Assembly: GCA_036785375.1 (NCBI GenBank)
Contig: JAWMAR010000214.1
Location: 1,860,001-1,924,000, forward strand
Direction of reading: 5' to 3'
Length of the DNA: 64,000 nucleotides
Source of the DNA: Leucoraja ocellata
Lineage: Eukaryota
Position 1 is the stretch's first letter. Every line of letters begins with the position of its first letter. Shown here piece after piece: positions 2,010 to 55,892 of the stretch. Below the pieces are notes generated by a model. That model searched no databases, was not told the DNA's origin, and saw only the letters and a list, made by a program, of their open reading frames with translations. The position numbers and the translations under genes are program-made.

Positions 2010-3510
2010 TTTATAGGGTCAACTTGCCCACACCGGCCAGCATGTCCCATCTACCTTCCCGCATTTGGTCCGTATACTTCCAAACCTGTTCTGTCCATAT
2101 ACCAGTCTAACTATTTCTTAAATGTTGGGATAGTTCCTGCCTCAATTACCTCCTCTGGCAGCTAGTTCCATACATCCACCACCCTTTGTGTGAAAAGGTT
2201 ACCCCTTGGATTCCTATTAAATCTTTTTGCTTTAACCTTGAACCTATGTCTTCTGGCTGTTGATTCCCCTACTCTGGGCAAGATACTCTGTGTGTCTACC
2301 CGATCTATTCCGCTCATGATTTTGTACACCTCTATAAGATCACCCCTTATCCTCCTGTGCTCCATGGAATAGAGTCCCAGCCTACTCAACCTTTCACCAT
2401 AGCTCACATCCTCTAGTCCTGGTAACATTCTCGTAAATCTTCTCTGTACGCTTTCCAGCTTGACAACATCTTAGGACTACCTAAGATGGCACCTACCTGC
2501 GGCAACATTTTGCCAGCGGCACAACAGAAACTCTTCAAATATAGTATTTCTGAGCTCACCTGCATTAAAGAATCTGCAGAAACCAACGATGTAAGAAGCG
2601 AGTAGCTAACGCATTTAAATGCATTAGTGCTACTGCGATCTCCCGACTGTGAGGGAATCCCCGATTGGAGGGGACTCTCGATCTTCTACAGGTGCACAGT
2701 AGAGAGAATACTGACTGGTTGCATTGTGGCTTGGTTTGGTAACTTGAACGTCCAGGAGTGGAAAAGATTGCAGAACGTTGTGACCACTGCCCAGTCCATC
2801 ATCGGCTCTGACCTCCCCACCATTGAAGGGATTTATCGCAGTCGCAGCCTCAAAAAGGCTGCTATAATAATCAAAGACCCACACCATCCTGGCCACACAC
2901 TCATCTCTCAGTTACCATTGGGAAGAAGGTACAGCTTGAAATCTGGAACATCCAGGTTTACGAACAGCTTCTTCCCCACAGCCATCAGGCTATTAAACTC
3001 GCCATCAAACAAACTCGTCATCGAACAATAACAGCCTATTGCACTTTATCTGTTTATTTACCGCGTGTGTGTATATATATATGGTCTATGGTATTTAGAC
3101 ACACTGAACTTTTATCTCCTGTTCTGCATTATGTTTACATATTCTGTTGTGCTGCAGCAAGCAAGAATGTCATTGTCCTATCTGGGACACATGACAATAC
3201 AACTCTCTTGACTTGACATCTTTGCTATAAAGCAGTGCCCAGAACTGAACACAATACTCTAAATGCAGCCTCACCAACGTCTTATACAACTGCAATATGA
3301 CCTCTCAACTTCTATACTCAATACTCTGGCTGATGAAGGCCAATGTGCCAAAAGCCTTTCTGCACAACCGATCCACCTGCCATTCCAGCTTCAAGGAACT
3401 ATGCACCTGCACTCCTAGATCCCTCTGCTCTACAACACTACCCAGAGCCGAACCATTCACTGTGTAGATCCTGCCCATGTTAGATTTCCCAACATACAAC
3501 ACCTCATTGC
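2010..3510 (-). mobile_element. CR1/HER1 LINE 3' fragment, interrupted by a Rex1-type insertion at 2473-3216
   Basis: ORFs 2162-2428 (LPGLEDVSYGERLSRLGLYSME..RGDLIEVYKI) and 3305-3502 (QRDLGVQVHSSLK) are typical CR1 RT C-terminal sequence. Confidence 0.9.
2473..3216 (+). mobile_element. internally deleted Rex1/Babar-type non-LTR element (5' UTR joined to 3' end)
   Basis: Starts near aagatggc; ORF 2627-3031 FYRCTVE.ILTGCI..WFG...SFFPTAIRLLN; (CTTGA)n tail; acatctt on both flanks. Confidence 0.8.
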
Positions 3511-19274: not shown

Positions 19275-21900
19275 CAATGCAATCAGAAAGTATTCAGACC
19301 CCTTCACTTTTTCCACATTTTGTTATGTTCCAGCCTTATTTTAAAATGCATTAAATTCTTTTTATTTATCATCAATCATCACACAATACCGCAGAATGAA
19401 GGAACGATAACAGGTGTTTTGAAATTTTTGCAAAGTAATTAAAAATAAATAACTGAAATCACATTTACATAAGTATTCAGACCCTTTGCTATGACATTCA
19501 AAATTGATCTTCGGTGCATCCTGTTTCCATTGATTATCCTTGAGATGTTTCTACAACCTGATTGGAGTCCACCAGTGGTAAATTAAATTGATTGTACATG
19601 ATTTGGAAAGGCACACACCGTCTATATAAGGTTCCACAGTTGACAGTGTATGTCAGAGCAAAAACCAAGCCATGAAGTCGAAGGACCTCCGAGACAGGAT
19701 TGTGTGGAGACACAGATCTGGGGAAGTGTATAAAATAACTTCTGCAGCATTGCAGGTCCCAAAGAGCACAGTATTTTCTTAATTGGAAAAACTTTGGAAC
19801 CACCAGAGCTCTTCATTTGGCCACCCAGTCAAACTGAGCAATCGGGGGAAGGGCCTTGGTCAGGGAGGTGACCAAGAACTTGATGGTCACTCTGACAGAG
19901 CTCCAGAGTTCCTTTGTGGAGATGGGAGAACCTTCCAGAAGGACAACTATATCTGCAACACTCCACCAATCAGGCCTTTATGGTAGAGTAACCAGACGGA
20001 AGCCACTCCCCAGTAAACGGCACATGACAGCTCTCTTGGAGTTTGCCAAAAGGCTCTCGGACCATGAGAAACAAGATTCTCTGGTCTGATGAAATCAAGA
20101 TTGGACTCTGTGGTCTGAATGCCAAGTGTCATGTCTGGAAGAAACCAAACACCGCTCATCACCTGGCCAATATCATATCTATGGTGAAGCATGGTGGTAG
20201 CAGCATCATGCTGTGGGGATGTTTTTCAGCGGCAGGAACTGGGAGACTAGTCAGGATCGAGGGAAAGACGAACGGAGCAAAGTACAGAGAGATCCTTGAT
20301 GAAAACCTGCTCCAGAGCGTTCTGGACCTCAGACTGTGGCGGAGGTTCACCTTCCAACACGACAATGACCCTAAGCACACAGCCACAACGCAGGAGTGGC
20401 TTTGAGACAAGTCTGTGAATGTCCTTGAATGGCTCAGCCAGAGCCCGGACTTGAACCTGATCCCACATCTCTGGAGTGACCTGAAAAAGGCTGTGCATTG
20501 GCGCTCCCCATCCAACCTGACAGAGCTTGAGAGGATCTGCAGAGAAGAATGGGAGTAATTACCCAAATACAGGTGTGCCAAGCTTGTAACGTCATACCCC
20601 AGAAAACGTGAGGCTGTAATCGCTGCCAAAGATGCCACAACAAAGTACTGATAAAGGGTCTGAATACTTATGTAAATATTTCAGTTATTTATTTTTATTT
20701 ACTTTGCAAACATTTCTAAACACCTTTCACTTTTTTATTATGGGGTATTTTGTGTAGATTAATTAGGTATGTTACAAAACCTACCTGAATTGTGGCTGAG
20801 CATCTGCCCTACCCCGTGTGCGCGATTTTGGCGCTGTTTAGAGGGGGCGGGTTTAAAATGCGATTTTTACTAGGCTGTTCCAATCGAAAATGTTCAGCCT
20901 AGTAAATCATTAACGGAAAATCGCTGAAAGACCCCGTCGCAAAAGGTATTATTAGTTTTTATGGCCTTGTATAATATTTATAGTAGTTTAAAAATCACTC
21001 TCTAAACTCGCAACCTCTCGCAGCCCCAGGGTTTTATAAAGCAAACAATTAAAGGTATGTACCTTATTTTTACATTAAATGGGACTTGTATATAACCCTG
21101 TATATAAAGTTTTCTATAGCGAGTAGTTCATTTTGGGCTCTTTATATCCCGCAGTATTTTTCTGGGCATTTGAGGGCACAAATCCAGCGCAATGTGAACG
21201 TTCTAAACCAGCGCGTTCACAGGAACCCACTAGAAAGCCGATTTAAATTGACTTTAATTTACAGCAATTGAACACTAAATTCCTTCCATTTGGCCTATAA
21301 ATTGATGTAAATGAGATTTAAAAATCATGTTTTATTGTGAATTATTTGTGAATATTATTTGGACACTTGGGCTATTTAAAAATGTTAATCATTTATTAAG
21401 AAATGAATAGATGTTTAGATCTAGTAATTGAAGTTTGAAATTAGCTACAATTGGGTAACTAACTAATTATATGCTTTAATTTCAGGTCATCCAAGTAAGA
21501 TTATTTTATATTTGTTTCAGAATGCTTCAATCTATGATAACTGAAAATTTCATTCAGTTCTCTTAATTTTTAAGAAGGTTATGGGCTTTTGACTGTCCAC
21601 GCTCACAGCTTTTTTGTTATGTCCATAGAAAATCAATAGGGAACAAGATGTTAATTTCCGAGTATGAAAATGGCCATAACTTTTTTATTACTTGAGATAT
21701 GAAAGTGAATTAGGTGTCAAATTAAACTTATTGTTATGCTTTATCTGATGGGATAAATTGCAAACTTGATTTTTTAAATCTCAAAATTTTGTAACATTGC
21801 TAGATTGATGATAAAATAAATGATTCCATTTTAGAATAAGGCTTTAATGTAACAAAATGTGGAAAAAGTGAAGGGGACTGAATACTTTCTGAATGCACTG
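19275..21900 (+). mobile_element. Tc1 transposon (IR-DR type) with frameshifted DD34E transposase; right TIR interrupted by a 1-kb MITE
   Basis: TIRs cagtgcattcagaaagtattcag; TA TSD with empty site near 47000; [27 protein letters not shown] and QSPDLN motifs. Confidence 0.95.
20764..21802 (+). mobile_element. non-autonomous DNA transposon with TAG termini and 7-bp TSD (hAT-like), copy 1
   Basis: Termini taggtatgttacaaaa / ttttgtaacattgcta; TSD gattaat/gattgat; inserted in the Tc1 TIR. Confidence 0.85.
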
Positions 21901-22094
21901 TATTCCCATACCTCTGATGAAAAGGAAATTGTAATACATTCTAGCAAAGGTTATGAATCACAAAACACGGTATGGCTATTGAAGGAAAATTTGTCATTTG
22001 GGAGGAGGGAAAGAAGTACTGTTCTGTCAAAAATTATCCTGTTGCATTTAGAAGGATGAGGTGGTTCACATTGCAACCTACCTGATAATGAAAA

Positions 22095-22420
22095 CCTCGA
22101 TAGAGTGGACAGGATGTTTCCAGTAATGAGAGAGTCTAGAACTAGGGGCATAGCCTCAGAATAAAAGGACATACCTTCATAATGGAGATGAGGAATTTAT
22201 CGAGCCAGAGGGTGCTGAATCTGTGGAATTCTCTGCCACAGACGGCCGAGATATTGGGCATTTTTAAGGTGGAGATTCATCGGTTCTTGGTTAGGAGGAG
22301 CATCAAAGGTTATGGGAAAAGGCAGGAGAATGGAATTGAGAGTAAAATCGAGATCAGCCATGATTGAATGGTGAAGTAGATATGATGGGCTGAATGGCCT
22401 AATTCTGCTCCTATATCTTA
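22095..22420 (+). mobile_element. CR1 3' fragment
   Basis: QRVLNLWNSLPQ and a CR1 3' UTR; partial paralog at 55605-55785. Confidence 0.8.
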
Positions 22421-23113
22421 TGGTCACGTGCTTACAGAAGGCAGAAAACAACTCTAGATTAACTATCCTATTTTTCTCTTACATTGTTAATCTCTCCAAA
22501 ATGGATGATGTACAATAAAAACAATGCAGCAAAATGTCCTCCCTCTCCCAACATAATTGCATCGTTCTGCTTGTGTCGGCCAGTAGCTCAAAACCACCAG
22601 CTCGGTTTCCATATCATTATTTCCAATGTTTTCCTTGCTGCCATATGCGTTAGGATTCAAAGTCTTCAACATTTTTGGAAGCAATTACTTGTGCCTTCTT
22701 TGACATTTATCCTAATGGACTGCAGTAATCCAACAGTTTGTCTTTTCTGGAATGATTGATTCCTTCACAATACTATACCACTGATTGATCTTGATGGCTT
22801 GTCTTGCGGGTCTCATAACTAATTTGTCAGAGATAGAATAAGCCTGTAATAGCTCCAGGCTTGTATATGTGCAGTGGATTTCTTTTCTGAATTCAACTCT
22901 TAGAAAACAGACATCTAAGAGTATAAATTTAAATAATAAGCACATGCCACTCATCTCAGTTGTACAGTTTTAAAAATATTATTATTTTCAAGGCACCAGG
23001 CCAGACAAATTGCTGAATTTTATATAAGTAGAATTGCTTAACATAATTACGTTTCTGGAATGAATAGAAGTAAATTGCTGTCTTTATTAATAATTCAACC
23101 CACACGATTACAG

Positions 23114-24154
23114 TAGCAATGTTACAAAATTTTGAGATTTAAAAAATCAAGTCTGTAATTTATCCCATCAAATAAAGCATAAAAATAAGTTTCATTTGAC
23201 ACCTAATTCACTTTCATATCTCAAGTATTTAAAATGTTATGGCCATTTTCATACTCGGAAATTAGCATCTTGTTCCCTATTGATTTTCAATGGACATAAC
23301 AAAAAAGCTGTGATCGTGTGCTGTCAAAAGGCCATAATCTTCTTAAAAATTAAGAGAACTGAATGAAATTTTCAGTTATCGTAGATTGAACCATTCTGAA
23401 ACAAATATTAAATAATCTAACTTGGATGACCTGAAATTAAAACATATAATTAGTTAGTTACCCAAGTGTAGCAAATTTCAAACTTCAATTACTAGATCTA
23501 AACATCTATCCATTTCTTAATAAATGATTAACATTTTTAAATAGCCCAGGTGTCGAAATAATATTCATAAATAATTCACAATAAAACATGATTTTGAAAT
23601 CTCATTTACATTAATTTATAGGCCAAATGGAAGGAATTTAGTGTTCAATTGCTGTAAATTAAAGTCCATTTTAAATCAGCTTTCCAGTGGGTTCCTGTGG
23701 AACGCGCTGGTTTAGAACGTTCACATTGCGCTAGATTTGTGCCCTCAAATGCCCAGAAAAATACTGCGGGATATAATGGGGCCAAAATGAGCTACTCGCT
23801 ATAGTAAACTTTGTATATAGGGTTCTTAAGAAGCCCTTTTTAATGTAAAAATAAGGTACATACCTTTAATTGTTTGCTTTATAAAACCCTGGGGCTGCGA
23901 GAGGTTGCGTGTTTAGAGAGTGATTTTTAAACTACTATAACTATTATACAAGGCCATAAAAACTAATATTACCTTTTGCGACGGGGTCTTTCAGCGATTT
24001 TTCGTTAATGATTTACTAGGCTGAACATTTTCGATTGCAACAGCCTAGAGAAAATCGCGTTTTAAACCCGCCCCCTCAAAACAGCGCCAAAATCACACAC
24101 ACGGGCTGGGGCAGATTTTCAACGATGCTTCAGGTACGCTTTGCAACATACCTA
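23114..24154 (-). mobile_element. same 7-bp-TSD element, copy 2, inverted
   Basis: Reverse-complement match to 20764-21802 over its whole length; perfect TSD attacag at 23107-23113 and 24155-24161. Confidence 0.88.
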
Positions 24155-24229
24155 ATTACAGGGAGAGCATACAAACTCCACAAGTACAGGACCCGTGATC
24201 AGGACTGAACCGGGTCTTTTTAAGCATTT

Positions 24230-25743: not shown

Positions 25744-26227
25744 GTAAGTATTTTCAAGAATATGAAATGCTACTAAGGAATGCATAAAGCAAACCTTGAA
25801 CTGTTCAGATGAAATTACAAATGTTGCCGTCTACAGCAATATATTTTGGAACGGGCATTTTACTAAAGGGCATTATCTGCATAACAGGATTTTTCTTGAA
25901 TTCCGATGACATCGGCTTGTCATAGGACTGGTTTTAATTTAATTTATTTCACTTCCTCAAAAAAATGATTGCGATCTTTTCAGTAATTGTGTATTTTTTC
26001 AATTTATAGTAGCATGAATTAATGCACTTTTCAGCAGCTGAAGAGGAGCAAATTCTAAACATGCTCATAATTCTCCACAGTACCACAAATACTGTAAATA
26101 AAAAGTTATTCTGAGAATACAGAGCAGGTCAGGTCGTATCTGTTCTGAAAGAAACACTTAATGTTCAGGTCAATGACCTAGCATCAAAACTGCCAATAAT
26201 TATTTTCTTTTACCAAAAAAAAGACTG

Positions 26228-28158
26228 TGTAGCGGGTGCGTGAGAGAGCCTGGAATGAAGGCGAGGAGCCAGGCAAATTCTGTAGAGGCTTTAATGAGCA
26301 CAGCACACTACTCTCTGCTTCAGTGAGAGACTGAAGACTGGTCTCGCACCAAAAATCCCTGCTCTTATCTTGTCGCTGGGAGCCGTCCCCGAAGTGCCGA
26401 GGGGGATGAACCAGGGAGTGGCCTACTCCCCAGGAAATGCCACAGGACTCCCCCACGAACCGGAGGCATGAAATGGACGGGGACGTATGGGACGACCAGC
26501 CCGTGCGCGCACAACGGCGGGTGCAGGAACCGGAGTGCCAGGCGAAGGTAGCGGCGCGGGCGCTTGGGGAAAGGGCCGGAACGGCCTTGAATGGTCCTTC
26601 ATACGGCCGCTGAAGGGGCGTCCAGTGCGCGTCCCGACGGAGGAAAACAAACGGGCAGTCCTGGAGAACGGAAGGATCGTGCAGCCTGAACGAACCGTGG
26701 CGAGACGTCGGCGCCGGTTCCAACTTGACCACCTTCTCCCGAAGCCGTTGCAGGGCGGCCGATGGCTGCTCCGCCTGGCCCTGTGCTGATGGGATAAACT
26801 CACCAGGCACTGTCAGCGGGGTCCCATACACCAACTCAGCTGAGGAGGTGGCCAAGTCCTCTTTGTGCGTGGTGCGGATACCCAGCAAAACCCACGGCAA
26901 TGCGTCGACCCAGTCCGGGTCCTTGAGCCGAGCCTTCAGGGCAGCCTTGAGCCGGCTGTGGAAATGCTCCACCAGGCCGTTCGCCTGCGGATGATACACC
27001 ATGGTGCGGTGCAGGTTAACCCCGAGAAGGCGAGCCATGGCCGACCACAGTTCAAATGTGAACTGAGGCCCCCGGTCGTACGTAATGTCCAGCGGCACTC
27101 CAAATCGGGCAATCCAGTGTGCCGCCAAAGCACGGGTACACGTGGCTGAGAGGAGTCTGCAAATGGAACCACTTCCGGCCACCGCGTGAAACGGTCGACC
27201 ACGGTTAGGACGCAGGTGATGCACCAAGAAGACGGTAGCGGCCCCACGATGTCCATGTAGATATGATCAAACCGCTGGAGAGGGACGCGGAACTCCTGGA
27301 GCGGTGCCCGCACATGCCGCTGTACCTTGGCAGTTTGGCATGAGATGCAGGTGCGCGCCCAATGCCGAACCTATTTGCGCAACCCGTGCCGCATGAAATG
27401 GGAAGCCATGAGGGCCATCGTCGCCCAAACTGAAGGGTGGGCCAGCCCGTGGAGCACCTCGAACACTGCGATGCCAGGCGACAGGGACGATGGGCCGCGG
27501 CTGACCAGTCGAGATGTCGCACAGCAGCCATGCACCCCCAGGGCCACATGGAACGTCCTTCAATCGCAGACCCGAAACTGCGGTACGATAGGTGGACATC
27601 TCATCATCCGTCAGCTGGGCAGCCAGCAGTCAATGCCATCGGCCACCTGTAAATTGGTGTTGACCGTGGGACGAGACAAGACGTCGGCTACTCTGTTGTC
27701 TTTTCGCTCTATGAAAATAATGGAGGTCGTGTATTGAGAGACAAAAGCCAACTGCCGCTGCTGGCGAGCAGACCACGGGTCAGAAACCTTGGCGAACGCA
27801 AAGGTGAGTGGCTTGTGGTCCATGTAAGCAGCAAATGTCCGCCCCACCAAAAAGGAACGGAAGTGGCGCACGCTGAGGCAAAGGGCGAGGAACTCGCGGT
27901 CAAAGGCAGAAGGCTGCGTGTTCTGATCACATCGGGGTCACCAGTGTAGTGGGTGCGTGAGAGGGTCCGGAATGAAGATGAGGAGCCAGGCAAATTCTGT
28001 AGAGGTTTTAATGAGCACAGAACACTACTCTTCGCTTCAGTGAGTGACTGAAGACTGGTCTCGCGCCAAAAATCTCTGCTCTTGTAGCTGGGAGCCGGAC
28101 CTGACCATGAAGTAGGGGGAGGAACCAGGGAGTGGCCTACTCCCAAGGAACCGCCACA
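26228..28158 (-). mobile_element. internally deleted Gypsy LTR retrotransposon (RNase H and integrase only)
   Basis: TG..CA LTRs at 26228-26444 and 27945-28158; 4-bp TSD ACTG; tRNA-Trp PBS; PPT gtgggggagtcc; RNase H (FDREFLA, DHKPL, ADVLSR) and integrase (DIVGPLP, DRGPQF, YHPQANGLVE, RPYEGPF) motifs. Confidence 0.95.
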
Positions 28159-29225
28159 ACTGCACTATTTGAAGATGCTTTTTAATCTTGGTTTCCTACC
28201 ATTTTCAATTGCACAGTGAAATATTCAGTGTAATTTTACTGCATGAATAGACAAGAGTTTTTCAGAAATGAACTTGGGAAACAATAGATCTCCTTCGTCT
28301 TCATTATTTGCGGCATAGCAGCTGGTAAATCCAATAGAACACCATGATGGAGCTCAGAGTAACACGCTTTTTAGGACAGTTACTTTTGAGCTTGATCAAA
28401 TCCTCAATGATCAGGATGCTGAATTGGAAGAAGATGCTGACATTGATTCATCTATCTTTCTAGTGGATTTGGAGGATTTTCAAGGAGTCTTTACCTTATG
28501 GTGACTTTCAAGATATGCCAAATGATTTAAATCTTCCAGATTGTTGCAATGGATTTTGATTGGTGATGTCATTGAAAGGTTGAGAGAGGACTTTTATCTT
28601 TCAGGTGTTTGGTGTTCGACCAGTTCTATCCTATGAAGAAATCAACAATGACTCGATGCTTGGCCAAATCCCTCACTGGTGTGGGAATCCTTGGTCTGAC
28701 AACTCAAAATAGAGTGACATTGGAAAAGGCATTGAGTGCTTTGAGTCTCTCTGATAGGAGCATATGGAACCAAGTGTAGAAGGAACATACAACCTAGACA
28801 ACCTATCCACTTTCTCTCTGAAGCACCACCACCTGCGGTAGAATCGTCAGCATTTCATAGTTCAGTCACCTCAACGCCCACCGAACTGGAGTGGAAGCAC
28901 ACCATCTTTAACCACAAGGACCTGCTCAAAAGGAAGAGGATGAGAATCTCACTATTTAATTTGAGTGTGTGGGGTTGGGCGTTGGGAGATCCAGCATTCC
29001 AAATCTATAGACAAAGACTAGGCAAAGTTTATCAAAAGTAAGAAAGTATTTTGGGAGAAAGTATTCCTGAAGCATTATTCCCAGAGCACAGGAATAGTGA
29101 TTGAATAATTACATTTTGCAACACAGGAGATACTACCTTCATGAAGCCTTTGCCAGCTCCCCAAAAGCATGACCTAATTCTCTCATTTTCTGTCAATGAG
29201 TTAAAAGTAATGGAAAGTCACTAGT

Positions 29226-31121: not shown

Positions 31122-33253
31122 TGGGCCTGTCCCACTTAGCGATTTTTTTTAATTTATTTTTTTTAGGCGACTGTCATAGTCTTGTCAGATCGACTGTACC
31201 CCATCCTACGACTATGTCTAAGACAAGCTACGACAACCTAAGACCTAGTCGAAGTCACGCTACAGTAAGCTCCCGACAACCGACGACCCAATAGTGGTGA
31301 CTTAGGACGTCCTCCTTCGACACACCTACACCTACGACAACTGATGTCAAGCTACGACCCTGTAGGCGTCACAATGACCACATTGACATCATCCTATTTT
31401 ATTATTAAAGGGTTTGCAGGATGGGGTTTCCAATCATTCTGAGTCATGACTGCCATGAAGAAACTTCAGAGGTCATTGCTCTCAGTAGAAGAATCCCTGC
31501 TGCTTGCAGCAGCCCTAATGCTTATAGATCCGCAAGACAGAAGGACAAGAAGAATGGTGAAGAAGAAGCCCAACAAGAGGTCTGTGTGGTTGAAGCCCTT
31601 GTTCCACAGAAGACCCAGGTTGGGCCAGTATGAGAACCTGATGACTGCTTTAGCAAGAAGATCAAGCTGCCTTCAGAAACTTCACTAGAATCCCCTCCAA
31701 GCTGTTTCAGGAACTGAAGACACTGGTGGGCCCTCTCCTGGAGAAAAAGGAGACCTTCATGAGGAAGCCACTGGAACCAGGCCTGTGCCTAGCCATCACC
31801 CTCTGCTACCTGGCATCAGGAGACTCCTACAAGAGCCTCTCCTACAACTTTCTTGTGGCCAACAACACCATTAGCAAAATTGTCTGAGACACCTGTGAGG
31901 CCATCATCAATGCTTATGAAGATGAAGTCATGGACTGCCCTAGCACACCAGATGTGTGGAAGAGAGTGGTGCAGGGGTTTGATACAAGATGGACCTTCTA
32001 GCACAAGTGGGGCAGTTGACGGCAAGCATGTGGCTATCAGGTGTCCACCCAAGGGAGGTTCAATCTACTTCAACTACAAGAAGTTCCATTCCATCGTACT
32101 CCTAGCTGTGGTGGATGCAAACTATAATTTCCTGTTTGGGCACACCTGACAGTGTCGCAGATGGTAGGATCTCCATTGGGCAAGCACTGGAATCAGCAGG
32201 CTTTCCTGATCCATAACCTCTGTCAGGAGAAGATATCCCTGACATCCACCACACACTGGTTGCTGATGATGCCTTCCCACTCAGGTCATGGATGATGAAG
32301 CCATACCCTCACAGGCAGATGTCAAGGGAGCAGAGGACCTTCTGCTCCCTTGACATCTGCCAGGGCTAGGGTGGGTCATGGAAAATGCCTTTGGCATCCT
32401 CGCCAGCAGATTCAGATGCTTGCTGACTATGATGGAGCAGGAGCCCAAGAATGTGGAGACCATTGTGTACGCAGCATGTGTCTTCCACAACCTGATCTGT
32501 ACCAGAAGTGGAGCAGCAGCAGCAGCCATGCAGGAGGGTGACCGACTGGACAACCAGACAGGCAACATCACAGGCTCATAAAGGACAGGCTGCATCTATG
32601 GTGCCACTGAAGAGATTGCCAGGAAACACCAGCAAAAAGAGAGCCAAGGAGCAGAGAGACCATCTGCACTTACTACAACTCCGAACGAGGCAGTCTAGCA
32701 TGGCAGAACGACTTCATCTGAAGACCAGCAGCAAACATCCCACATCACAAACAAGTCCACCACTCCAGGAAGAAAGCCCACTACAGACCACAAGATAAGG
32801 CCCTTTTCAGGATCACCCACATCCTCCCAAAAGAGTTTAATTTTAAATGCAGTGCAGTGTTTGTGTTTTATTCATCACAATATATAAAAATAATTTGCTT
32901 TTCAATGCAGTGCAATACGTGGAGATGTGTACTTACGTTTTTTCAATGCGCCAATCAAATGCACCAATGACAATCTACGTCACCTGGCGACAGCCTACAT
33001 CATCCTGACGACCCACTACCACTGCACCAACGTCACGAGAATTCAAGCTACGCTCCATGGTGTCAAAACCACTGTCGCCGCTGTTGAAAAATTAGCGGCG
33101 ACCAGAATGCCGTTACGACTTGTTGCAAGTCTGAGGAAACTACTCACGACCATGCAGGCGACACCCCGGCAACTACCCGCTAACATGTGACCGTGTGGTG
33201 ACCGCATAGTCTGGTGTAGTCACCTAAAAAGCCGCCTAAGTGAGACAGGCCCA
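31122..33253 (+). mobile_element. PIF/Harbinger transposon with degenerate DDE transposase
   Basis: TIRs tgggcctgtc(c/t)cacttag; TAA TSD; [40 protein letters not shown] and ENAFGILASRFR motifs; multiple frameshifts. Confidence 0.93.
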
Positions 33254-34033: not shown

Positions 34034-34600
34034 TCAGTCCGACACTGAGATCCTACTGAAGATGGGCAGCCGCCGGGTTACGGGTACTGTTGGTGATGGC
34101 AGCAGCAGCAACCTCATCCCCATCCCTTGCCCAGACCCAAGCCCAGAGTCTGGGCCAGCTCTAACTCCAGGTTGGGGCTGAAGGCCGTCTGCAGAAGTCG
34201 GCACAGTCTAGCTCCGGGCCAGAGGAGGCTGAGCCCAGGCTGGCGCAGGCAAGGCCGGGGGGGCCCTCGCTCCTTGGGGTTGTGGATGCAGTGGCAGCGG
34301 GTACCGTAGGGGCAGAAGCCGGTGGTGTGCAAGGTACGGCTTGTACTTGGGTAGTAGCTGAGGCCGTGGGCGAACTGGCACTTGTCGCAGTAGCAGCCCA
34401 TCGGGAAACAGGTTCTTCTGGAGTTGGGGCGGGGTTGGCGCTGGCTGTGGGTCTGGAACTGCTGGTGTTGTCGGCCTGCCGGGAGAGGCGGAGGTGAGCT
34501 GGGGTTTACACTTCTTTGTGCCGGGCCTCAGGGACGGCATCCCGTCAGTCCGGACACCCCCGGGCGGGGATGGGACACTCGAGTGGGGTGGCGCGGTTCG
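34034..34600 (-). pseudogene. decayed ZFP36/tristetraprolin-family (tandem CCCH zinc finger) pseudogene
   Basis: Minus strand: [33 protein letters not shown], and C-terminal RRLPIFSRISVSD* (stop at 34034-34036); many frameshifting deletions. 5' limit is uncertain. Confidence 0.88.
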
Positions 34601-34944
34601 GCAGCGCTTGTGGGTCGCCACTTGTAGTTCGCCCGTTTCCTTCCCCCCGTCTCCCACTGAAAAAAGACAAAAAATCTGTCCCAAACTGGATTATACTGTA
34701 TTTTTTGTTAGGAATTGGCATCTCAGGAATGGAAAGCAGTGTAACGGCTAAGTACAAGTTAATACAATATGCAACATAAATAAGCAAGGAAAGATGGAGG
34801 ATGAAATAAATCATTTTTGAATTGTAGAATTGAATTGTGGTATACCATACCAGCTCTGGGCTTGAGACAAAAATGTTGGTCTCCATGCCTTAAAAAGGTA
34901 GGCCTGAGATGGACCATGGCACGAAAGAAACAGACACTTAACTT

Positions 34945-54344: not shown

Positions 54345-55892
54345 TTCCTGCCCTTGTTCGACGTCCGAAATGCAATAAATCACACTATTCTCTATTAAAT
54401 TCCATCAACCATTCCTCCGCCCACCTGGCCAATCGATTCAGATCTTGCAAAATCATTCGCAACCATCTTCACTATCTGCAACACCATTGACTTTTGTATC
54501 ATCGGAAATTACTGTAGCAGTTTTGATGGAAATCTTCAAGTCACAGTTTACCGGTGACATTATATTCAAACAATGGGCCTCAGTTCATTTCTCAGTTTAC
54601 TGACTACATGGAGAACACAGGTGTGTACCACCACAAAGTTACACCAAAGTGTCCGCAAGCTAATGGAGAAGTGGAACGTCAGAGCCAATCTCTAGAGAAG
54701 AGGATGAGAATTTCTCAAGCAGAAGGCAGAGATTGGAAGGAGATGCTCTTATCAAATGCTCAGCATATAGAGCTACACCACTCAACACATCAGGTAAGTC
54801 TGGCAGAATTGTTGTTTTGAAGGAAAATCCGGTCCAAGATACTATGACATGGGAAATGATCAAGAAGTGGGAGATCATGATGCAGAAAAGAAAATGGCAT
54901 CAAAGCATTATGCAGACTGGAGATGAGATGTCAAACCATCAGATGTGATGCCAGGAGACGAGGTGCTAGTGAGGAGAGAAATGGACATACACTTCATTTT
55001 ACAACCATGCACAGTGGTGTCCAGACAAGGAAATAAGGTGGCGGTCCAATCGACAGGAGTCAAATATGATAGAAACATAACGTATATGAAAAGTATCACC
55101 GTTGTGATAGTCCAGGGACATTGCAACCTGAGGTTGAGACTGTGGGGCATCAGACTCAAGGTTATTAAATTGAGGAGCCAAGAATGCACGAGTCTATGCG
55201 AAACAAGAATCGAGATGATGAACTGATGGAACAGGACTAACATCAGAATCCAGTACCAGTGCAGACATAGGCAGTGGTCAGACCAAAACGTCAGAGAAGA
55301 CCACTAAGGAGATACGAGGACTATGAGATATATTGACATGTGGAAATGATGCATAATCAATGTAATGAACGCCATATCCGGAATGGTGTTGCAATGTTCA
55401 GTTTACAATGTGATGATGCGGATATCCTTTTTGTTTGAGAAGGAATGTCATGGTAACTGATGTCATATTTAAATGTATCACGTGTTACTATGATTCAGAA
55501 TGCTCAGAGGACACATGGAGCCGGGATGGAAAGGAATGGCGGACGAATAAAACAATACGTTAATGTTCAATGCCCTTGTTTATTACATTCGGCTCAAGGC
55601 AACAGAAGGCCAAAACATTGAGTATTTTTAAGGTGGAAATTGACAGGTTCATAATTATTAGGAGCATCAAAGGTTATGGGAGAAGGCAGGAGAATGGAAT
55701 TGAGAGGGAAATATAGATCAGCCATTATTGAATGGTGGAGTAGATATGATGGGCTGAATGGCCAAATTATGCTCCTATATCTTATGGTCACCTGCCTGCA
55801 GGAGGTGGAAAACAACTCTAGACTAGCTATTCTATTTTTCTCTTACCTTGTTAATGTCTCTCCAAATGGGATGATGTAGAGATTACAATAAA

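Follow-up and report, generated by a model that had tools for sequence, protein, structure and literature searches.

An LTR element of 1,931 bp lies on the minus strand at 26228-28158 of the window, by which is meant the whole 64,000-nt stretch of Leucoraja ocellata DNA that was analysed. Its parts are collected in Table 1. The 5′ and 3′ LTRs are identical in 188 of 209 aligned columns (90%), and the K2P distance of 0.109, about 5% divergence per site in each LTR, indicates that the copy is old. Between the LTRs, 1.5 kb of sequence consists of a tract resembling tRNA, the second half of RNase H and an integrase broken by frameshifts; RNase H precedes integrase, and a GPY/F-type motif (RPYEGPFK) lies in the ORF at 26184-27266. 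Among named proteins, the best relatives come from skates (Rhinoraja, 76% identity; Amblyraja, 78%), and no second copy of the family was found within the window. We classify the element as an ancient Ty3/Gypsy copy with an internal deletion; it is a dead fossil, and nothing points to a function.

Table 1. Features of the element and its immediate flanks, in window coordinates
Feature	Position	Strand	Remarks
Left target-site duplication, ACTG	26224..26227	.	
3′ LTR, TG...CA ends	26228..26444	-	
Short purine run adjoining the 3′ LTR	26448..26454	-	likely remnant polypurine tract, judged by position
Integrase region, zinc-binding and core domains, GPF motif	26580..27475	-	frameshifts and stops; 72-78% identity to skate proteins P0001 and P0011
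RNase H, C-terminal half	27614..27908	-	begins at conserved AFDRE motif
2-nt overlap at the junction	27907..27908	-	fits tRNA 40-41 and family pol
Over-long primer-binding site	27907..27943	-	antisense to tRNA-Trp 40-76 including CCA
Mismatches at tRNA positions 57 (27924, T) and 58 (27925, G)	27924..27925	+	
Mismatch at tRNA position 64 (A)	27931	+	
Spacer between 5′ LTR and primer-binding site, 1 nt	27944		
5′ LTR, TG...CA ends	27945..28158	-	
Right target-site duplication, ACTG	28159..28162	.	

Elsewhere in the window, nested long inverted repeats at 20760-24158 (arms of 561 and 459 nt, 92-94%) likely represent a non-autonomous DNA transposon. Decayed transposase-like ORFs at 31440-32800 presumably resemble Harbinger/IS5-type nucleases, and decayed tandem CCCH zinc-finger frames on the minus strand at 34114-34690, which we take to resemble ZFP36, are possibly a pseudogene. 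A distant integrase fragment at 54548-54748 is 35-38% identical to P0001 and P0011.

The tract next to the 5′ LTR had been described in the original prediction as matching tRNA-Trp 40-76 with the CCA end at 34 of 37 positions. The same count was obtained when an ARAGORN-called eukaryote-type tRNA-Trp(CCA) gene in locus L001, to which CCA was added and which is not the host's own gene, was used as the reference. Against a second tRNA-Trp gene (L014) the identity was 33/37, with a further difference at position 47. Under a uniform model, the chance expectation of a 34/37 match in the window is about 1e-12, and that of 17/19 matches beyond an 18-nt primer-binding site (PBS) is 6e-9. Two mismatches had been assigned to positions 57-58, where they indeed lie; the third was located at 64. 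As the tract starts 1 nt from the LTR, it is the PBS, extended by 17-19 nt beyond the 18-nt limit, and the presence of CCA at this distance from the LTR points to the mature tRNA primer as template. The possibility that the tract is a tRNA gene was rejected, as Rfam gave no match in 27800-28200 and ARAGORN called no tRNA gene in the window. A protein search using the LTR-PBS reading frame gave no match.

The tract continues in frame into the S-A-F-D-R-E of RNase H. The Pfam RT_RNaseH profile is matched only at positions 47-105 of 105, and in the closest full-length relative, P0001, the AFDRE motif is preceded by 522 residues comprising protease, RT and the first half of RNase H. The direct joining of the tract to the RNase H frame, with gag, protease and RT gone, was thus confirmed, and half of RNase H has been lost in addition. 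Pol-bearing contigs of the family (at least 15 in X6 and at least 4 in X16, two of the sequencing runs described below) match the window up to 27908 and then diverge. The letters at 27907-27908 therefore fit either the tRNA or pol, the part explained by the tRNA only is 35 nt, and the length of the copy, given before as 37 nt, is corrected to 35-37 nt. By a rough estimate, an unrelated deletion would start inside the 19-nt tract in about 1% of cases. The exact coincidence of the end of the tRNA match with the junction, where 2 nt overlap, supports read-through of the primer and an aberrant second-strand transfer; the shortness of the overlap counts against this reading.

The distribution of the structure was examined with contigs from four public runs, carrying four species labels, that were aligned to 27760-28260; listed from these are 32 of 1085 pieces, 24 of 292 loose ends and 40 of 174 variant rows. 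Contigs running from the LTR into the flank are present in all four runs, and hence the insertion predates the split of the four species labels. Among the pieces listed, the junction is spanned by X16 record 13 (depth 15.5, 1 difference) and X1 record 3 (depth 15.8, 3 differences), both at the single-copy depth of the flank. Depth bookkeeping would place the three differences of the X1 copy at 27832, 27892 and 27931. This copy appears to retain T57 and G58 but to agree with the tRNA at 64; the mismatch of the window copy there would accordingly be later decay, probably CpG decay after insertion. The absence of rows with another letter at 27924 and 27925 was also considered as agreement with the window and was discarded, since a listed row needs to lie at least about 33 letters from the end of a contig and the short contigs of the tract fall short of this.

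A PBS of at most 18 nt had been taken as the baseline. Among the contigs listed, the other family copies instead match over about 8-13 nt, their short PBSs agreeing with the window only from 27931, 27935 and 27936 (records 19, 20 and 4). The tRNA letter at 27931 is found in 8-9 contigs per run in all four runs, coverage of 27913-27929 amounts to 87-94% of the depth at 27931, and in each run at least one contig with this letter extends into the LTR. Such contigs may come from tRNA genes, from orthologs or alleles, or from additional family copies with a long PBS. The element has kept both LTRs, the PBS and the purine tract, as would a non-autonomous subfamily in which the deleted structure was itself copied many times. 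Such a propagating subfamily had been anticipated, but none is seen among the contigs listed: the junction contigs among the 32 of 1085 pieces are the two at flank-level depth, and at 27892 all non-family depth in X16 belongs to one contig (record 13). We consider a subfamily of this kind very unlikely.

Similar tracts were searched for at other loci. A pattern of tRNA-Trp 48-76 with CCA, in which positions 57 and 58 were left free, returned 20 metagenome loci; a similar long pattern returned 3 loci in genome_contigs and none in viral_contigs. With L001 as the reference, the remaining 22 loci (L002-L023) were reduced to 17 distinct non-gene loci with tracts of at least 29 nt by removing two bacterial tRNA-Glu genes (L012, L016), the whole tRNA-Trp gene (L014) and two 99% duplicates (L017 of L005 and L022 of L009). 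As a pattern demanding a long match was used to select these 17, and not every one is established as an LTR element, they speak for recurrence, not for frequency. Four of them have G at position 58 and one has C, A58 being kept in 12/17; the excess of change at 58 has a binomial p of 0.001 at 5% divergence and of 0.02 at 10% in these 17 loci. A pyrimidine at 57 occurs in none of the 17. The CpG position 64 is changed in 1/17, and the contrast between 58 and 64 is not significant (Fisher p 0.17). The tracts end at 27, 27, 28, 32, 38, 38, 40, 41, 41, 41, 44, 44, 45, 47, 47, 48 and 48 (48 being the edge of the pattern), with clusters at 27-28, beside G26, and at 38-41, where the two ends at 38 lie beside G37; in L006, T replaces G37. 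These features of the 17 loci suggest a modified RNA template.

Many of the tracts lie a few letters after an LTR-like end. In L005, L011, L018, L019 and L072 they stand directly ahead of gag, and L011 and L018, two copies that are 84% identical, have a 29-nt tract in common; the extensions are therefore heritable and do not need a deletion. Long tRNA-Trp tracts thus recur in related Trp-primed Gypsy elements, and uniqueness of the window copy is not supported. In a control, all nine viral_contigs loci with an 18-nt Trp PBS were without extension (3-6 of 19 matches). An 18-nt scan of genome_contigs was rejected as an unbiased denominator, as its 57 loci were mostly chance or bacterial and only about 5 (L027, L047, L055, L072, L075) looked eukaryotic. 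Confirmed relatives of P0001 were found in neither genome_contigs nor viral_contigs.

Some of these loci have features of their own. In L005 (2950-3100; duplicate L017), a CHCC-type Gypsy, a 32-nt tract is followed 44 nt on by a second, short PBS and accompanied by upstream fragments, one with G58; the array looks like serial capture of overrun strong-stop DNA. The PBS of L072 (1501-1530) reaches tRNA position 52 and carries G58. This locus is a 4.3-kb contig in a bacterial assembly, likely eukaryotic contamination, and holds a permuted CHCC Gypsy (integrase, LTR, PBS, gag, protease and the start of RT). L004 and L020 (both 2980-3045) contain 50-nt tRNA-Trp copies ending at 27, with related sequence upstream and unrelated ORFs after them (NADAR; PHD and endonuclease). 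At L013 (2390-3040), tRNA-Trp 41-76 (C58) is attached by its CCA end to an RNase H/integrase frame of a Gypsy element that reads in the same direction, which is opposite to the orientation of a PBS.

In retroviruses, plus-strand synthesis normally stops at m1A58, a modification that tRNA-Trp primers also carry, and products of read-through are known, according to the available part of one report (PMC13191261). Minor strong-stop products extend to 55, 54 or 37 (PMC13191261, PMC8599865, PMC11251516; available in part), and m1A causes both RT arrest and context-dependent misincorporation, as the accessible text of a further study states (PMC4787781). Positions 26, 37 and 58 are described as sites of RT error in zebrafish tRNAs generally, tRNA-Trp being unnamed in the portion of that paper available (PMC11417395).

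We consider it probable that the window copy arose in one faulty round of reverse transcription, in which the plus strand overran m1A58 and the second strand transfer was misplaced. Plus-strand strong-stop DNA would have copied the tRNA past 58, with C placed opposite m1A58, and would have stopped on, or left, the tRNA at 40-42. Its 3′ end, no longer matching the short genomic PBS, would then have joined the minus-strand DNA at the YSAFDRE codons of RNase H via 2 nt, a transfer that would have skipped the leader, gag, protease, RT and half of RNase H. Both LTRs being complete, integrase from the same particle could have inserted the copy normally. The copy would have been fixed before the four species labels split and have decayed since. 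Strand-transfer deletions were reportedly described by Pulsinelli and Temin in 1991.

A closely similar process has been described for HIV-1 by Hardy et al. 2025 as delayed second-strand transfer, in which RT continues over the primer and transfers downstream (PMC12657518). The available part of that paper presents 44 proviruses with tRNA-Lys3 inserts of 7-54 nt at the deletion junction, 5/44 of them changed at 58. As in the window copy, the LTRs of these products are intact, the primer tRNA is copied colinearly beyond the PBS and the junction of the deletion is set by the insert; only a minority is changed at 58, and the 17-19 nt by which the window copy exceeds 18 nt fall within the range of 7-54 nt (PMC12657518). 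In contrast, the HIV-1 products are somatic proviruses primed by tRNA-Lys3, whereas the window copy is a Ty3/Gypsy element primed by tRNA-Trp and fixed in the germ line under four species labels, and the PBS of its family is shorter than 18 nt. With its intact LTRs and a colinear tract at the junction, the window copy works like a product of delayed second-strand transfer. The original prediction that read-through and an aberrant strand transfer made the deletion is thus supported by the CCA, by the end of the tract at the junction and by the likeness to the HIV-1 products as far as these are described in the accessible text (PMC12657518).

The letter at 58 is probably a misincorporation opposite m1A58. 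This part of the prediction is probably supported, as 5 of the 17 other tracts differ at 58 and the change is apparently common to the X1 copy. A host gene with G58 is unlikely, since both fetched tRNA-Trp genes (L001, L014) have A at 58 and m1A58 is described for all retroviral primers, tRNA-Trp included (PMC13191261). T57 is not supported as a further signature of the modification, given its absence from the 17 other tracts; it is possibly an RT error made just after the bypass, or an early mutation. The proposed second stop near the anticodon loop was likewise not borne out: in this copy the tract stops at 40-42, which is 3-5 nt short of G37, and its end may have been set by the point of transfer.

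Faithful copying of an under-methylated tRNA, with T57 and G58 as ordinary later mutations, would affect only the record of the modification and is compatible with the deletion step. At an LTR divergence of about 5% per site, a single chance change at 58 has odds of about 5%; moreover, A58 is kept in 39/44 HIV inserts in the available text (PMC12657518) and in 12/17 other tracts, and T57 fits no signature observed. Two adjacent specified changes, in contrast, have odds of about 0.3%, T57 and G58 but not the change at 64 would seem to be common to the X1 copy, and G58 recurs in 4/17 unrelated tracts and in L072. We therefore regard later mutation as rather unlikely.

The tracts ahead of gag at L005, L011, L018, L019 and L072 raise the alternative that the parent lineage already had a long primer site, fixed after an old read-through, and that the stretch from gag to RNase H was lost afterwards, by template switching or a deletion in DNA that began within this tract or where it ends. 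The several contigs per run that cover tRNA 46-62, at least one of which joins the LTR, and the heritability of lentiviral over-extension sequences, as stated in the accessible part of the report (PMC13191261), fit such a history. It leaves a breakpoint exactly at the end of the tract to be explained; further, the listed family copies with LTR and PBS have a short PBS, and the 24 of 292 loose ends listed have no common leader sequence beyond 27907-27912. We judge an inherited long site unlikely. An origin at the DNA level or by a LINE-type process, in which the PBS recombined or was converted with a tRNA-Trp gene or pseudogene and repair deleted gag-pol, could draw on the homology of a 12-18 nt PBS to tRNA genes and on the tRNA copies reported beside proviral deletions in the available text of another study (PMC12220202). 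The tract is, on the other hand, colinear with the PBS and CCA, has neither a duplication of its own nor gene flank, and lies between intact LTRs and target-site duplications, while the letters changed at 58 and the tract ends next to 26 and 37 at other loci suggest a modified RNA template. Such an origin is in our view extremely unlikely. The HIV tRNA-Gly insertion described in the same study (PMC12220202) was considered and set aside, its structure being different in the part available. Misplaced transfer after read-through of the primer thus remains the preferred reading.

From its Trp PBS, 4-bp target-site duplication and GPF motif, the window copy is probably a Gypsy element of the CsRn1 lineage. 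Members of that lineage (CsRn1, PwRn1, AgCR, CsRn1_Cv1) likewise have a tRNA-Trp PBS starting TGGTGA(G/C)CCC, a 4-bp target-site duplication, a GPY/F integrase motif and RNase H before integrase, in the accessible portions of the descriptions (PMC2582038, PMC3630058). The clade is called invertebrate-specific in the available text of one (PMC2582038), whereas the host here is a vertebrate; the PBS given there is about 12 nt, like that of the short-PBS family copies and unlike the window tract of 35-37 nt. The CHCC gag motif (CX2HX9CX3C) was found in 3/22 scanned loci (L005, L019, L072) and in none of 48 proteins (P0001-P0048), the majority of which begin downstream of gag. As gag is deleted, CHCC cannot be seen in the window copy. 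The L072 integrase is 58% identical to skate P0001.

The primer over-extension sequence of lentiviruses and spumaviruses resembles the window tract in that tRNA-complementary letters directly follow the 18-nt PBS and m1A58 is read through; as far as the available text describes it (PMC13191261), it reaches only about 54-55 and rescues transfer in working viruses, whereas the window tract reaches 40-42 and ends in a deletion. With its tract to 52, G58 and position ahead of gag, L072 is the closer parallel to this sequence. Helenus TRIMs are also non-autonomous LTR elements with tRNA-derived sequence, but in the accessible part of their description (PMC10886601) the tRNA-like sequence lies inside the LTRs round promoter boxes A and B, as opposed to the antisense 3′ half at the PBS seen here. 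Helenus/Ajax TRIMs were therefore rejected as the same thing, their structure being different.

The mechanism itself is not new, having been published for HIV-1 (PMC12657518, available in part). In the literature searched, which omits most subscription and older papers, no report of such a structure in a Gypsy element was found. The window copy probably extends this error, known from retroviruses, to a Gypsy retrotransposon and to the germ line, and it is old enough for several species to carry it. We tentatively suggest, as a possibility that falls short of even chances, that overrun of m1A58 is routine in CsRn1-type Gypsy elements primed by tRNA-Trp, in which the full strong-stop DNA is never matched by the short PBS, and that the overrun becomes fixed in their genomes, sometimes before an intact gag and in tandem. 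Animal genomes would then hold many datable DNA copies of germ-line tRNA-Trp bearing the RT footprints of m1A58 as A to G or C, of G37 as a stop at 38 or a change to T, and of G26 as a stop at 27. If this is true, tRNA modification and error in second-strand transfer would have left a fossil record open to searching, to which the skate copy contributes one dated entry. Since similar tracts recur in related Trp-primed elements, with changes at 58 and ends near 26 and 37, a census of assembled genomes could measure read-through and misincorporation by retrotransposon RT in vivo and date tRNA modification states from DNA alone.
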